The notes beneath the pieces are model-generated. The model was not told the origin of the DNA. It saw only the letters and a list, made by a program, of their open reading frames with translations, and made no database searches. The position numbers were made by a program, and so were the translations under genes. A stretch of 64,000 bases of DNA from an uncultured Solirubrobacteraceae bacterium. GTDB taxonomy: Bacteria; Actinomycetota; Thermoleophilia; Solirubrobacterales; Solirubrobacteraceae. The stretch is taken from positions 88,554 to 152,553 of the forward strand of contig CAWHAP010000014.1 of assembly GCA_963827335.1 (NCBI GenBank), read 5' to 3'. This document shows positions 1,718 to 34,191 of this stretch, piece after piece. Every line of letters begins with the position of its first letter. Position 1 is the stretch's first letter.

Positions 1718-1874
1718 GGGGCCTCCCTCTGAGGTGACCCCACGGAGCTTACGCCGCGCGCGTCGGCGGCGCGATCGGCGCCGTGGTGACGGCGCTGTCG
1801 GCGTGGCGGTGCGGGATGCCCTGGACACCAGGCATCGAGGGAAGGGGTCGGGGGAAGTGGCGCTCCCTCGGCCC

Positions 1875-2157
1875 GCGAACGTCGAGGTTGCGCCCGTGCA
1901 GCGCATGGGCTCGACGTTTGCCACCTATGCGGCAGCAAACGTCGAGCGCGAGCCGGCGCAGCGCGGGCGCTCGACGTTGTACGCGTACATATGGCAGCAA
2001 AACGTCGCGTTGCCGCGCGCGTCCGGACGGCTTGCGACGTTTTGCGGGCTATAGCCGCAAACGTCGCACGGCCTCGCCTGCCCGCGCCCAATGTGACGCT
2101 CTGCAGGTCCGGAGGAGCGCCGCTGCCTGGACCCGCTCCCCTCAATGCCCGGTGTCC
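1875..2157. repeat. nested-palindrome intergenic repeat, divergent copy 1 (multi-hairpin AACGTCG...CGACGTT modules)
   Basis: Three stems are visible: GAACGTCGAG/CTCGACGTTT (1877-1886/1910-1919), AACGTCGAGCGC/GCGCTCGACGTT (1938-1949/1967-1978, perfect 12 bp) and GCAAAACGTCGC/GCGACGTTTTGC (1997-2008/2034-2045, perfect 12 bp). There is a central GGCTATAGCC palindrome at 2047-2056. The right end CCTCAATGCCCGGTGT resembles the termini of the other copies. Confidence 0.75.
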
Positions 2158-2206
2158 GCAGGCATCCCGCGCTGCGACCGCGAGAGCGCCGTCACCTGAA
2201 CGCTGA

Positions 2207-3948: not shown

Positions 3949-4283
3949 TGGCGCGCGTCCTCGCGGTCTTCGACGATCTCCTGCTCGGCTCCAACGTCCT
4001 CGGCATGCTCCGTGCCGCGGGGCACGATGCCCGGCTCGCCGGCGCCGACGCGGCCGCGGACGACGCCGACGTCGTCATCGTCGACCTGGGGGCGGGCAGC
4101 TTCGACGGGGTCGCGCTCCGTGCGCGATTCGCGGGCGCGGCGACGATCGGCGTCTACTCCCACGTCCACCACGACGTCAAGGTGCGCGCCGAGGCGGCGG
4201 GGTTCGACCTCGTCGTGCCGCGGTCGCGGATGGCGCGCGAGGGGCCGGAGCTGGTGGCGCGGCTCGCTCCGCCGCCTGGTTGA
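3948..4283 (+). CDS. hypothetical protein (receiver-like alpha/beta pattern)
   Basis: GTG 3948 overlaps the upstream TAG (TAGTG). VARVLAVFDDLLLGSNVLGMLRAAGHDARL...ADVVIVDLG... The upstream part of ORF 3420..4283 was trimmed as a shadow frame. Confidence 0.5.
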   Translation: MARVLAVFDDLLLGSNVLGMLRAAGHDARLAGADAAADDADVVIVDLGAGSFDGVALRARFAGAATIGVYSHVHHDVKVRAEAAGFDLVVPRSRMAREGPELVARLAPPPG

Positions 4284-4326
4284 CGGGCGGGCCGCCGCTG
4301 CCTGCCGTGTCGCGCGAGCGGCGGCC

Positions 4327-4567
4327 CCGGCGAACGTCAACGGCGGGCATCGAGGGGGGCGGGTTCGGTGGAGTGGCGTGCCCAACGTCGTAATCGTCCG
4401 GCGGCCAGGAGCGATTACGACGTTGAGGGTGCTATGGGACCCCAACGTCGTACGGCGCCCGGTTCGTCGAGCCGTTGTGACGTTGGGGGCAGGCCCACCC
4501 GGACTCGCCCCCCTCGATGCCCCCCGTTGACGTTCGCGGAGCGCCCGCCATCACCACAGCGGACGAC
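4327..4567. repeat. nested-palindrome intergenic repeat, copy 2 (archetype)
   Basis: Outer inverted repeats are CGAACGTCAACGGCGGGCATCGAGGGGGGCG (from 4331) and CGCCCCCCTCGATGCCCCCCGTTGACGTTCG (to 4536). An inner hairpin has a perfect 14-bp stem, CAACGTCGTAATCG/CGATTACGACGTTG. There is a second hairpin, CCCCAACGTCG...GACGTTGGGG. The centre is GGTGCTATGGGAC. A tail follows: GAGCGCCCGCCATCACCACAGCGGACGAC. Confidence 0.85.
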
Positions 4568-4572
4568 CACCG

Positions 4573-5550
4573 CTACGGCGCGGGCGGAGGACCGGCGGCC
4601 GTGAAGTCGAACGCGCGATCGACGTCCAGCGGCTCCTTCAGGATCCCGAACTCGCGGTCCCAGGCCGCCCAGTCCCGCAGGACGTCCCGCCGCAGCTGAC
4701 CGAACCCCGCCGCGCCGGCGGTGAACGCCTCGTCGACCGCGTCGAGCTCCGCGGCGAGCGCGTCCTGGTCGAGCCGCGGCTCGACCGCGGCCATCGCCGC
4801 CACGGCGCTCTCGGGGTCGCGCTGCGCCTCGCCGTACCCGCGCTGCAGCGCACGGATCGTCGCCCGGACCATCGGCTCCTCGTCCTCGAGGGTCTCGCGG
4901 GTGACGGCGAGCACGAGCTCGGGATAGCTCGGCGCGCCGTAGTCGTCCACGCGGAACTCCCGGACCGCCGGCCGCTCGCGCTGGAGCGCGACGCCCTCGA
5001 CGTTCCAGAACGCGGTCGCGCCGTCGACCCGCCCCGCCAGCATCGCCTTGACGGCCTGGAAGCCGATCGTGGTCGAGCGCACCGCGTCCGGGTCGCCGCC
5101 GTCGCCGGCGACGACGGAGCGCAGCACGGCGTCGTCGGACGGCAGGCCCGTGACGCCGACGCGGCGGCCCTCGAGCTGCTTCGGGGAGCGGATGCCGGGC
5201 TGGGTCAGCACCGCGGCCAGCGGGCGCTGCACGAACGCCATGACGCCGACGATGTCGCGACCCTGCTCGCGCGCGAGGCCCAGGTCGTGGATGTCGAGGA
5301 TCGCCAGGTCGGCGCGTCCCGCCTGCAGCAGCTTGAGGGCGTCGGTCGACGCCCCGGGCGCCTGGATCTCGAGCGCCACGCCCTCGGCATCGTCGAAGCC
5401 GCGCTCCGTCGCCAGGTAGAGCCCGGCGTGGACGGCGTTGGGCTGGAAGTCGAGCAGCAGCGTGGGCTCGGACCCGGGACGGTCGTTCCCCGTGGTCGAG
5501 CCGCACCCCGCCACGACGGCGGCGAGGAGCAGGAGCATCAGGGCGCGCAC
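4573..5550 (-). CDS. ABC transporter substrate-binding lipoprotein, NMT1/THI5-like (nitrate/sulfonate/bicarbonate family)
   Basis: Lipobox-type signal LLLLLAAVVAGCGS. LDFQPNAVHAGLYLATERGFF-like core. Start set at GTG 5550 (ATG 5538 is also possible). The upstream Arg-rich extension to 5616 was trimmed. Confidence 0.7.
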   Translation of the reverse strand: MRALMLLLLAAVVAGCGSTTGNDRPGSEPTLLLDFQPNAVHAGLYLATERGFDDAEGVALEIQAPGASTDALKLLQAGRADLAILDIHDLGLAREQGRDIVGVMAFVQRPLAAVLTQPGIRSPKQLEGRRVGVTGLPSDDAVLRSVVAGDGGDPDAVRSTTIGFQAVKAMLAGRVDGATAFWNVEGVALQRERPAVREFRVDDYGAPSYPELVLAVTRETLEDEEPMVRATIRALQRGYGEAQRDPESAVAAMAAVEPRLDQDALAAELDAVDEAFTAGAAGFGQLRRDVLRDWAAWDREFGILKEPLDVDRAFDFTAAGPPPAP

Positions 5551-12386: not shown

Positions 12387-12635
12387 GGTCTCCGCCGGCG
12401 AACGTCAACGGCGGCATTGAGGAGGCGGGTCCGATGGGTGCGGTCCCCCCCAACGTCGCCCGCCGTCCGGATCGCCGAGCCGATGCGACGTCGGGGGTGC
12501 TATAGGACCCAAACGTCGCACAGCGCCCGGTTCGTCGAGCCGTTGTGACGTTGGGGGCAGGCCCACCCGGACTCGCCCCCCTCGATGCCCGCCGTTGACG
12601 TTCGCCACGCGCCCGCCATCACGCCGGCGGACGAC
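12387..12635. repeat. nested-palindrome intergenic repeat, copy 3
   Basis: GGTCTCCGCCGGCGAACGTCAACGGCGGCATTGAGGAGGCGGG ... CCCGGACTCGCCCCCCTCGATGCCCGCCGTTGACGTTCG, then the tail CGCGCCCGCCATCACGCCGGCGGACGAC. Centre GGTGCTATAGGAC. A perfect palindrome GGTCCTAGGACC lies just upstream (12369-12380). Confidence 0.85.
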
Positions 12636-12676
12636 CAGCGCGCATCCCCACCCGCGAACCGGGAACATGCACCGCC

Positions 12677-32472: not shown

Positions 32473-32772
32473 GTCGTCCGCCGGCGTGATGGCGGGCGCT
32501 CCACGCAGGTCAACGGCGGGCATCGACGGGGTGGGCGGGTTTCGCGGTGGCGCCCCCAACGTCGCACGCCGTCCGGATCGCCGAGCCGATGCGACGTTGG
32601 GGGTGCTATAGGACCCAAACGTCGCACCCCGCCCGGATCGCCGAGCCAATGCGACGTTGGGGGCACACCCCACCCGGACTCGCCCCCCTCAATGCCGGTG
32701 TTGACGTTCGCCGGCGGAGACCGCAGGCCCCCGAACCCGGCTCCTCAATGCCGGTGTTGACGTTCGCCGGCG
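32473..32772. repeat. nested-palindrome intergenic repeat, copy 4 (tail on the left, duplicated right terminus)
   Basis: The reverse-complemented tail GTCGTCCGCCGGCGTGATGGCGGGCGCTCC lies at the left. Two nearly identical inner hairpins (C(C/A)AACGTCGCAC(G/C)CCG(T/C)CCGGATCGCCGAGCC(G/A)ATGCGACGTTGGGGG) flank GTGCTATAGGAC. The right terminus CTCAATGCCGGTGTTGACGTTCGCCGGCG occurs twice (about 32689-32717 and 32744-32772). Confidence 0.85.
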
Positions 32773-32779
32773 CCGCCAC

Positions 32780-33529
32780 TCACCCGAACAGATCCTGCTC
32801 CCGGGCGCGCAGCAGCGCGCCCGCGACCCCCGGGCCGTCCTCGCCGAGCACGAACCGGTCCAGGCCGCGCAGCCGCACGGCGGGCTCACGGCTGTCCTTG
32901 CCGCGCACGAGGTCGGACGCGGCCGCGACCTGGTCGGCGACGGCGATCACGGTGGCGTGCAGCACCCGCCCCTGCGCGTCGGGCAGCCCGCGCCAGTCCT
33001 CGAGCGGCGCGAGCCCGGCACAGCCGATCGCCACCTCGGCCTGGCCGACGCGCCACGCGCGGCCGAACGAGTCGGTCACCACGACGGCGCAGCCGAGCCG
33101 TGCCCGCAGCGCCCGCGCGGACGCGTCCGGGTCGGCCGGGAGGAGCACCGCGTGCGCCGCGCCGCCGGCGTTGGACTGGTCGACGCCTGCGTTCGCGCAC
33201 ACGAAGCCGTGGTGCGTGCGGGCGATCAGGCGGCCCGCATCCGCCCGCAGCAGCTCGGCGCTCTCGCCCAGGATCAGCTCGACGAGCCGCGGGTCCTTGC
33301 CGTGCTCGGCGCCGAGCGCGACGGCATGCGCGCCGGGCGTGACGTCCGCGAGCCGCACGACGCGCCCCTCGGCCTTGGCGACCGCCTTGTGCGCGACCGC
33401 CAGGACGTCCGCCGGCCCCAGCCCGGGCTCGGGCAGCCGCGCGGCCGCCTCCGCGAGCAGCGCGGCGAGGTCGTCGCCGGGCCGGATCTCGGGCAGCCCG
33501 GGCAGCGGCTCCGCGGCGAGTGCCGTCAC
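32780..33529 (-). CDS. cofE: coenzyme F420:L-glutamate ligase, single-domain CofE type
   Basis: 249 aa. GTG 33529 overlaps the cofC stop (GTGA). Motifs AHKAVAKAEGR, GFVCANAGVDQSN, VTDSFGRAWR. There is no C-terminal nitroreductase-like domain. Confidence 0.8.
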   Translation of the reverse strand: MTALAAEPLPGLPEIRPGDDLAALLAEAAARLPEPGLGPADVLAVAHKAVAKAEGRVVRLADVTPGAHAVALGAEHGKDPRLVELILGESAELLRADAGRLIARTHHGFVCANAGVDQSNAGGAAHAVLLPADPDASARALRARLGCAVVVTDSFGRAWRVGQAEVAIGCAGLAPLEDWRGLPDAQGRVLHATVIAVADQVAAASDLVRGKDSREPAVRLRGLDRFVLGEDGPGVAGALLRAREQDLFG

Positions 33530-34191
33530 GCGAGCGCGGAGCGCGGCGCCATCCGGTCCAGGAGCGCCCGCGTCCGCGGCGCCGCCTCCGGGAGGCGCGT
33601 CAGCGCCCGCTGCAGCGCCGCGAGGTCGCCCGGCGTGTCCACGTCGAGCTCGAGCGACGGCGCGTGCGCGACGCGGACGCGCACGCCCGCTGCGGCCCCG
33701 CCGGCCGCGTGGCGCGCGAACGAGCCGGGGCCGAACGACGGCGCGATCGCGCGCGGCGGCGTGAGCAGCAGGGCGTTCGTGCCGGACCCGTGCCGGTCCG
33801 GGACGATCACCACGCCGGCGCCGGGGTGGCCGCCGAGCAGCGCCGACACCTCGTCCGGGGCGAGCGCCGGGCAGTCGCCCGGTACGAGTAGAGCCCGCTC
33901 GGCGCCGCGGCGCGCCGCCTCGGCCACGCCCAGCGCGGCGGCGGCCGACTGGCCGGCCTCGACCGGGTCCCCGATCACGTGCGCGCCGGCCTCGCGGGCC
34001 GCGGCGGCGGCCCGCGGCTCGGCCGTCACCACGATCACGTCGTCGAGCTCCGGCACCGCGGCCAGCGCCGCGAGCACGTCGCCGACCATGCCGGCGGCGA
34101 GCTCCGCCCGGTCGGGCTGCCCGACCGCGTCGCCCAAGCGCTGCTTGGCGCGGCCGAACGACTTGACGGGGAGGACGGCGGCCGTGCGCAT
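33526..34191 (-). CDS. cofC: 2-phospho-L-lactate / phosphoenolpyruvate guanylyltransferase (CofC/FbiD)
   Basis: AVLPVKSFGRAKQRL N-terminus, GDCPAL and GSGTNALL motifs. 221 aa. Confidence 0.8.
   Translation of the reverse strand: MRTAAVLPVKSFGRAKQRLGDAVGQPDRAELAAGMVGDVLAALAAVPELDDVIVVTAEPRAAAAAREAGAHVIGDPVEAGQSAAAALGVAEAARRGAERALLVPGDCPALAPDEVSALLGGHPGAGVVIVPDRHGSGTNALLLTPPRAIAPSFGPGSFARHAAGGAAAGVRVRVAHAPSLELDVDTPGDLAALQRALTRLPEAAPRTRALLDRMAPRSALA

Follow-up and report, generated by a model that had tools for sequence, protein, structure and literature searches.

The window analysed here is a 64,000-nucleotide stretch (G000:C14:88554-152553) of a metagenome-assembled genome (MAG) from an uncultured Solirubrobacteraceae bacterium; G000 denotes this MAG (5.38 Mb, 23 contigs, 74.5% G+C, 88% complete) and C numbers denote its contigs. 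The FbiC protein of this soil actinobacterium groups it with uncultured Solirubrobacteraceae (Solirubrobacterales). An earlier examination of the letters by themselves, hereafter the sequence-only reading, had described four nested-palindrome elements with one architecture in the window and proposed that they belong to a dispersed family. Upon reading the four sites and scanning them for inverted repeats, we found that the elements are real and that the features described are all present. Genome-wide, the family with this architecture occupies 83 loci and is the commonest repeat of G000. As had been stated, the window copies are intergenic in varied contexts, copy 1 lying between tandem genes, copies 2 and 4 between convergent genes and copy 3 between divergent genes. 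Their neighbours are housekeeping genes (GcvT-like, NMT1/THI5-like, SDR, HxlR and CofE by Pfam). The parts of the four copies are listed below in window coordinates; X and Y are two related versions of a tail that often lies outside the arm.

1803..2178, no strand: copy 1, an expanded variant with four hairpin modules inside diverged arms plus an outer inverted repeat, between two minus-strand genes, the downstream neighbour being GcvT-like (Pfam)
1803-1820 / 2161-2178: outer inverted repeat of copy 1
1823-1874 / 2106-2157: diverged arms of copy 1, 73% complementary
1878..2100, no strand: hairpin array of copy 1 (exact pattern matches and sequence), with hairpins at 1878-1918, 1938-1978 and 2001-2041 (stem variants GAG/CTC and GCG), and at 2060-2100 a fourth that is degenerate
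4300..4329, plus strand: left tail of copy 2, type X (GCCTGCCGTGTCGCGCGAGCGGCGGCCCCG), starting 17 nt past the TGA stop (4281-4283) of the upstream gene
4330..4368, plus strand: left arm of copy 2, like a terminal inverted repeat (GCGAACGTCAACGGCGGGCATCGAGGGGGGCGGGTTCGG), from the inverted-repeat scan and an arm hidden Markov model (HMM)
4384..4424, no strand: hairpin 1 of copy 2, 41 nt, AACGTC...GACGTT, with its stem lengthened to 14 perfect bp
4425..4443, no strand: 19-nt linker of copy 2, the symmetry centre (GAGGGTGCTATGGGACCCC)
4444..4484, no strand: hairpin 2 of copy 2 (AACGTCGTA...TGTGACGTT), 60 nt past hairpin 1
4499..4537, minus strand: right arm of copy 2 (inverted-repeat scan)
4538..4568, minus strand: right tail of copy 2, type Y (GGAGCGCCCGCCATCACCACAGCGGACGACC), ending 4 nt short of the stop (4573-4575) of the convergent NMT1-like gene
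12387..12637, no strand: copy 3, filling the divergent spacer between the SDR gene and a 116-aa gene
12387-12395, 12396-12435: short left tail and left arm of copy 3
12452-12492, 12512-12552: hairpins of copy 3, with the centre at 12493-12511
12565-12606, 12607-12637: right arm and Y tail of copy 3
32473..32769, no strand: copy 4, between convergent hxlR-like and cofE genes
32473-32501, 32502-32541: inverted Y tail and left arm of copy 4
32558-32598, 32618-32658: hairpins of copy 4, with the centre at 32599-32617
32670-32712, 32730-32769: right arm of copy 4, then a second tandem arm

The outer inverted repeats recognised earlier correspond in copy 2 to 39-nt arms (4330-4368 / 4499-4537) with 92% complementarity, and the perfect 14-bp stem singled out in the same copy lies at 4383-4396 / 4412-4425. 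The central spacer reported as conserved reads GGTGCTATAGGAC in copies 3 and 4 and has one mismatch (TATGGG) in copy 2; the centre between the hairpins is near-palindromic, GGTGCTAT(A/G)GGAC. The tail AGCGCCCGCCATCACGCCGGCGGACGAC was found where it had been placed, to the right of copies 2 and 3 and, as its reverse complement, to the left of copy 4 (32473-32501), reading AGCGCCCGCCATCAC..GGCGGACGAC. A guess that the full element has longer, variably present terminal repeats was borne out, the inverted terminal sequence extending past the 30-40-nt arms to a total of ~70 nt. Three statements had to be amended. Two internal hairpins per copy hold for copies 2-4, but copy 1 has four; the outer ends of copy 1 are present, but as a diverged variant located further out than described; and copy 4 has the described architecture, but its right arm is doubled in tandem. 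The hairpins of copy 1 follow one another at periods of 60, 63 and 59 nt, and its array includes the linker GGGCTATAGCC.

The window contains 6 occurrences of the motif AACGTCG-N27-CGACGTT where 0.01 would be expected, and none of 100 shuffles reached 6. A folding check suggested with the original description yielded z scores, relative to shuffles, of -9.1 for copy 3 as RNA and -9.6 for copy 2 as DNA. The absence of a protein-like open reading frame (ORF), also claimed there, agrees with an alignment of full-length copies, among which the reading frame differs.

We also noted a perfect 11-bp hairpin (GGGCCGCCGCT / AGCGGCGGCCC) at 4289-4327, right after the stop codon of the gene upstream of copy 2. 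Its 3' half is the X tail of that copy, the element end and its flank making a local stem that was not seen at other X tails.

Modular composition of the family

A census of G000 with profile HMMs built from 15 full-length copies detected 197 arms and 73-87 hairpin modules in 83 loci, and the hairpins of the genome number ~90-110 in all, so that the further copies for which the sequence-only reading had called to search do exist. The elements follow a grammar of one to seven units of a ~30-nt tail plus a ~40-nt arm, then zero to four units of a 41-nt hairpin plus a 19-nt linker, then one to seven inverted units of arm plus tail. Neighbouring arms form 62 convergent pairs and only 2 divergent ones, and the convergent pairs span 136-560 bp (median 217). 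Between the arms of these 62 pairs, AACGTC hairpins are found in 33 (exactly two of them in 23), an unrelated TTGAYC...GRTCAA hairpin with an AT-rich tip in 10, and other content in 19, the classes overlapping for some elements. Conversely, hairpin arrays exist without arms, such as the four modules at C1:57474-57701, and tail-arm units by themselves build tandem arrays of up to seven units that always point inward, with a period of 77-78 nt. This modularity, the use of the arms with other hairpins or alone in arrays, and the presence of armless hairpin modules in other genera are features that the sequence-only reading did not foresee.

Other identities for the repeats were considered and rejected. 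The arm arrays are not CRISPR arrays, because the entire 77-nt unit is conserved, and hairpin loops (23-29 nt) are not CRISPR spacers, since they recur between copies and have only chance-level matches of 16-20 nt elsewhere. Some arms contain GAGGAGG followed by ATG, but the frame is unconserved and the ATG is missing in most copies, which argues against coding. Integron attC or cassette sites were dismissed as well; the elements lie between unrelated housekeeping genes, no serine recombinase gene was found, and the five tyrosine recombinase genes are not nearby.

Two giant symmetric elements were found outside the window, both between convergent genes. The element at G000:C18:347691-349010 (locus L225; 1.3 kb) has 4 hairpins between 7 arm units on one side and 6 on the other, and that at G000:C10:96989-98486 (1.5 kb) has 6 left and 6 right arm units. 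Units are homogeneous within each array and differ between left and right, which indicates that each side expanded alone, to a near-equal number. The longest element bounded by a pair of arms, at G000:C12:52112-52671 (locus L224:213-772; 560 bp), has two hairpin pairs around a unique ~190-bp core of lower G+C, in which we found no Rfam match and no convincing ORF.

Constraint on arms and hairpins

The arm, ~40 nt long, consists of two conserved blocks around a variable block of 5-6 nt (CGAACGTCAAC-N5-6-GCATYGAGGRGGCGGGTCCGG). The variable blocks on the left and right are uncorrelated (aa 10, ab 8, ba 3, bb 5; Fisher P = 0.67), and partner arms are barely more alike than random partners (72% versus 68%). 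The arms are therefore conserved as sequence, in the manner of a protein-binding terminal repeat, which suggests a putative protein-recognition site. An arm pair opens with the same clamp as the hairpins, AACGTC/GACGTT (GAACGTCAAC...GTTGACGTTC). The ~30-nt tail that often lies outside the arm, in the versions X (GGTCTGCCGCG..GCGCGAGCGGCGGCCC) and Y (GGTCGTCCGCCGGCGTGATGGCGGGCGCT), is variably present among elements.

The hairpin module behaves differently. At its base is an invariant AACGTC/GACGTT clamp, which the search pattern itself fixed; the residue preceding the clamp was left free in the extraction, and 88 of 91 hairpins have an A there. Covariation accompanies variation at the three pairs inward of the clamp and at the five outward of it (GCA/TGC, ACA/TGT, GTA/TAC, GAG/CTC and CCA/TGG are among the variants). 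Across 149 diverse hairpins, 85.4% of stem cells are paired, compared with 69.4% in shuffles, and double-change cells number 400 rather than 177; no shuffle out of 500 reached the observed values, and controls with slid partners paired at 29-41%. Loops have no conserved sequence. Nonetheless, 96 of 110 hairpins in G000 have a length of 41 nt, and in 110 loci of other genomes the period is exactly 60 nt in 115 of 127 instances, the search pattern having permitted 59-62. Because loops so diverged should have gained insertions and deletions, the fixed hairpin length probably reflects a real constraint. The hairpins are thus maintained as structure, and one and the same element sets two kinds of constraint side by side, arms kept as sequence and hairpins kept as structure.

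Position, turnover and taxonomic range

The sequence-only reading had allowed that copies might prove to be parts of genes or of rRNA/tRNA spacers. All 83 loci are intergenic, none overlapping a gene as called crudely by third-position G+C (GC3; calls cover 84% of the genome), and the five tRNAs that are the sole Rfam matches in the window are far from the copies. Convergent junctions hold 41 of the loci, tandem junctions 32 and divergent junctions 10, against a genome background of 783, 2901 and 779, respectively; the convergent share is 49%, as opposed to 17.5% among the junctions as a whole (P = 3e-11). An element end faces the 3' end of a gene in 89 instances and the 5' end in 32, X and Y tails alike, with the terminus ~10-17 nt from the stop codon. 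Hairpin arrays of other genomes are distributed similarly (39 convergent, 41 tandem and 6 divergent, n = 86; background 112, 416 and 116; P = 2e-9). In tandem-gene contexts the hairpins are oriented 6 times sense and 3 times antisense, hence without a strand preference relative to the neighbouring genes.

Gene ends are otherwise very compact in G000. The spacer between convergent genes has a median of 6 nt, which leaves most convergent pairs without room for a terminator, and in relatives the stop codons touch each other or even overlap (TGACTA, CTAG).

Full-length copies at 14 or more unlinked sites share 81-92% identity with copy 3, indicating that the sequence was copied around the genome. 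Elements are present or absent at orthologous sites across sister species. The cofE/hxlR junction, which holds copy 4 (300 bp) in G000, is empty in three sister species, where the two stop codons abut (TGACTA in G005 and G002) or lie ~20 nt apart (G006), and is occupied in three others. The occupied junctions of sister species carry different inner modules: that of G004 has a different hairpin variant together with a duplicated cofE 3' end, and that of G009 another hairpin type. Either elements have inserted repeatedly at such junctions, or inner modules have been exchanged between resident arms. The NMT1 junction is occupied in G000 and G001 only. A closer look at the site downstream of cofE in G004 (G004:C2:416338-416900; locus L106:2230-2800) showed that the element is duplicated in tandem there and that the duplication also takes in the last 15 nt of cofE (GACCTGTTCGGCTGA) and ~20 nt of spacer; a boundary outside the element fits slippage or unequal recombination better than transposition.

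In a 99.4%-identical assembly, ERZ25039530 (contig_1508), copies 1-3 are unchanged except for one substitution, so this strain offered no empty sites for them. The substitution, the sole difference in copy 3, is at window position 12460, where C is unpaired against T; ERZ25039530 has A, which restores the AACGTCGCA/TGCGACGT stem. Exact-protein look-ups gave no match for three of the five proteins queried (HxlR-like, CofE and the cofE operon neighbour at 33526-34191), all encoded near copy 4.

The exact core of the young subfamily was found in no other species representative, and the arms are carried by 10 of the 11 genomes of this genus and are almost absent beyond it, with ~80-90 matches in each of three long-read sister genomes (G001, G004 and G010). 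The double-hairpin module ranges further. A search pattern of 24 specified bases retrieved more than 110 loci, many of them without arms and all in Solirubrobacterales records, among them the cultured Patulibacter defluvii DM4 (locus L177). In even samples, the pattern was present in 2 of 201 genomes of the order and in 17 of 401 genomes of the family, 8 of them from the 11 genomes of the own genus and the others from five further genera, and the reversed-pattern control gave 0 matches. G000, G001, G004, G009, G010 and G260 are carriers, and ~380 sampled genomes lack the module. The module is thus concentrated in its own genus and patchy in five others. Plasmid, phage and viral collections contained no match to the element.

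Nature of the elements and rival explanations

We place the family as a new addition to the kind of repeat represented by BOX, bacterial interspersed mosaic elements (BIMEs) and transposable elements of the miniature inverted-repeat type (MITEs), outside any named family. Among the candidates put forward in the sequence-only reading, a mosaic resembling MITEs or repetitive extragenic palindromic (REP) sequences and BIMEs fits best, while a classical REP system with a REP-associated tyrosine transposase (RAYT) is unsupported and free-standing RNA genes are disfavoured.

BOX, known from Streptococcus pneumoniae and S. suis, is built as boxA - n x boxB - boxC (Croucher et al. 2011, PMC3049150). 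In it, too, a pair of partially complementary end modules encloses a variable tandem array, whose short inner module folds largely independently, and it is likewise non-coding, present in ~100 copies mostly behind genes and without a transposase of its own. The alternative end modules that surround the same inner module in S. suis (PMC3049150) recall the arms here, which enclose different hairpins. The likeness is one of design alone, homology being unlikely given the 74% G+C here and the distance between phyla. Unlike AT-rich BOX, the present family is G+C-rich and belongs to a different phylum, its inner module is a 41-nt clamp-closed hairpin with a strict 60-nt period, and its end modules amplify into arrays of up to 7. 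The pneumococcal terminator-like repeat SPRITE is likewise enriched near the 3' ends of coding sequences and possibly co-opted as a terminator (PMC3049150), but differs in sequence and size class, and a U-rich tract is missing here.

REP, BIME and REPIN elements of Enterobacteria and Pseudomonas are also intergenic palindromic units, arranged in inverted pairs and in mosaics with other motifs, high in copy number and located between convergent and co-directional genes; they lack target-site duplications, of which none of >=5 bp was consistent here, and the roles proposed for them, in termination and mRNA stabilisation, are those suggested here. By contrast, our units are twice as long, have ~70-nt sequence-conserved arms and no unpaired GTAG tag, and no RAYT gene was found. 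CGTC-tagged REPs leave their tag unpaired and have stems of 8-9 bp with loops of 4-5 nt; they were reported in Proteobacteria, Chlorobi, Bacteroidetes, Spirochaetes and Thermotogae in a paper whose text names no Actinobacteria (Di Nocera et al. 2013, PMC3733652). As in the present family, CGTC stands at the hairpin foot after A residues, head-to-head dimers can fold into something larger, and no dedicated transposase is known (PMC3733652), but here GACGTT pairs with AACGTC and the hairpin measures 41 nt. MITEs such as Correia/NEMIS, ERIC, RUP and Nezha share with the family a small, non-coding format (136-560 bp here, under ~600 bp), terminal inverted repeats conserved as sequence, a high degree of base pairing, and dozens of copies whose presence varies between relatives; the family departs from them in its tandem arrays of one end and its modular interior, and in that neither a target-site duplication of >=5 bp nor an insertion sequence (IS) with matching ends was detected. 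The neisserial NIME and rhizobial RIME are intergenic mosaics of short repeats flanking variable inner segments, and their sequences and size classes differ from those found here.

The explanation that we favour, with some reservation, is that the family is a lineage-specific, non-coding, non-autonomous selfish repeat of the BOX/BIME/MITE kind, tolerated by its host and possibly used as a 3'-end hairpin. It is assembled from two modules: an end unit of tail plus arm that acts like a terminal inverted repeat, and a 60-nt unit of 41-nt hairpin plus 19-nt linker. Each module amplifies locally in tandem, and whole elements have been copied to unlinked intergenic sites, presumably in trans by an enzyme encoded away from them. 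Copies persist almost only at gene 3' ends, chiefly between convergent genes, where they would do no harm. Once there, an element would be transcribed as the tail of an mRNA, and the RNA is expected to fold into a very stable multi-hairpin that is identical from either direction and might halt read-through or hold off 3' exonucleases. A function at the 3' end of transcripts is plausible and matches the predicted symmetry and the position of the elements.

Several observations weigh against this explanation. No identical copies exist in the genome, and the sister assembly has the same copies 1-3, so current activity lacks support. The RAYT/IS200-IS605 or other transposase with matching ends that the sequence-only reading had envisaged was not found in G000: no Y1/RAYT gene (PF01797) was detected, although 6 control genomes match, nor was a gene for TnpB, DDE_Tnp_1, an IS256-type transposase or a serine recombinase, the absence being unproven in a genome that is 88% complete. 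G000 does have one IS110-type gene, two rve genes and five genes for tyrosine recombinases, but no element has any of them as a neighbour. Comparison of the genome with itself revealed no multicopy IS; its large repeats, considered as IS candidates, were rejected as such, being paralogous or strain-duplicate housekeeping segments. No arm pair exceeds 560 bp in G000, and none does among the matches listed for G001, G004 and G010. The target-site duplications for which the sequence-only reading had proposed to look did not appear at lengths of >=5 bp, a direct repeat of that size being consistent at none of the 46 x 46 offsets outside the arms; peaks of 2-4-bp repeats are parts of the palindromic termini, whose CCGG/GCGC-type ends mimic duplications of that size. 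Finally, stems remain paired where loops have diverged beyond recognition and hairpin length stays fixed, a constraint beyond what a decaying selfish element should show, and the crudeness of the gene calls also counts on this side.

A first rival is that the elements are host-selected 3'-end devices (bidirectional terminators, read-through insulators or 3'-exonuclease barriers) whose spread is secondary. The strong enrichment at convergent junctions and stop codons, a predicted fold that presents the same structure from both directions, the compensatory changes that keep the stems of old copies paired, and the short gap that otherwise separates convergent genes all speak for it. However, only ~5% of convergent junctions carry an element, sister species manage without one at the same cofE/hxlR junction, and 10 loci, copy 3 included, lie between divergent genes. 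There is no U-tract, and a terminator needs neither the AACGTC clamp, nor the 41/60-nt geometry, nor sequence-conserved arms. Moreover, purifying selection acting on insertions at other places accounts equally well for the position bias. We regard host selection as the primary cause as unlikely.

The clamp, the exact length and phasing, and the sequence-conserved arms leave room for a dedicated, hypothetical enzyme. As a speculation of low probability, the clamp that closes every stem, the arm pair included, would together with the 41-nt length and 60-nt phasing across genera with unrelated loops mark the substrate of a putative hairpin-specific enzyme of Solirubrobacteraceae. If true, this enzyme would copy or process the modules, either as a non-Y1 counterpart of RAYTs or as a nuclease or recombinase specific for structure, and the sequence-conserved arms would provide another site of recognition, distinct from the first.

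Gyrase and IHF are bound by BIMEs, and the elements could similarly act as duplex or cruciform DNA, providing phased arrays of sites to which a nucleoid protein, a topoisomerase or a recombination protein would bind. Conservation of the arms as sequence rather than as pairs is in line with this, as are the fixed 41-nt and 60-nt spacings with free loops, which suggest a geometric constraint, and the AT-rich, TATA-like centre within a genome of 74.5% G+C. On the other hand, half-site binding on duplex DNA makes covariation outside the clamp unnecessary, and no candidate protein was found; we judge a DNA function of this sort distinctly unlikely.

Independent small-RNA genes or cis-regulatory leader RNAs would explain the very stable predicted folds (z ~ -9) and the stem covariation. 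Such RNAs are nevertheless very improbable here: permissive Rfam searches (E <= 1-10) of copy 3 and two further elements returned no match, hairpins in tandem contexts have no preferred strand, elements face 3' rather than 5' ends, the number of modules ranges from 0 to 4, loops have neither conserved sequence nor long matches elsewhere in the genome, and partner arms do not covary. It is just as hard to credit a classical REP/REPIN moved by a RAYT (Y1 HUH), or a palindrome-associated element derived from IS200/IS605, since inverted pairs of intergenic, hairpin-based repeats that show no consistent target-site duplication of >=5 bp, and a CGTC placed at the foot of the hairpin like that of the CGTC-tagged REP super-family (PMC3733652), are set against PF01797 and TnpB genes not detected in a genome only 88% complete and against 41-nt hairpins with 13-23-nt loops and a base-paired CGTC, unlike published CGTC REPs (PMC3733652).

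Annotating this dominant repeat of the genome and genus prevents spurious ORF and small-RNA calls, six-frame translation of the element yielding long false peptides in high-G+C genomes. With this family, composite repeats of the BOX/BIME type also reach Thermoleophilia, a large group of soil Actinomycetota of which hardly any members are in culture. Its strict length and the lack of a known mobilising enzyme sharpen a question from the CGTC-REP literature, namely who moves or maintains such repeats, and the cultured carrier P. defluvii DM4 makes the question of the mover testable at the bench. Variable arrays would, in addition, serve as strain-typing markers.

Two further sites of the assembly are among its few with mobile-element genes. 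An IS110-type transposase gene lies beside an rve integrase gene near a contig end (G000:C7:474693-476832), and a relaxase-like ORF (G000:C20:252622-254510) lies within a two-copy segment, C20:253325-254510 being 91% identical to C22:1054-2244. As for the words of the clamp, the idea that AACGTC is special genome-wide was rejected (observed/expected 1.11). AACGTC and GACGTC occur at expected frequency in G000, and the AACGTT hexamer is strongly depleted, with 106 occurrences observed against 625 expected (ratio 0.17), which may reflect restriction-site avoidance.

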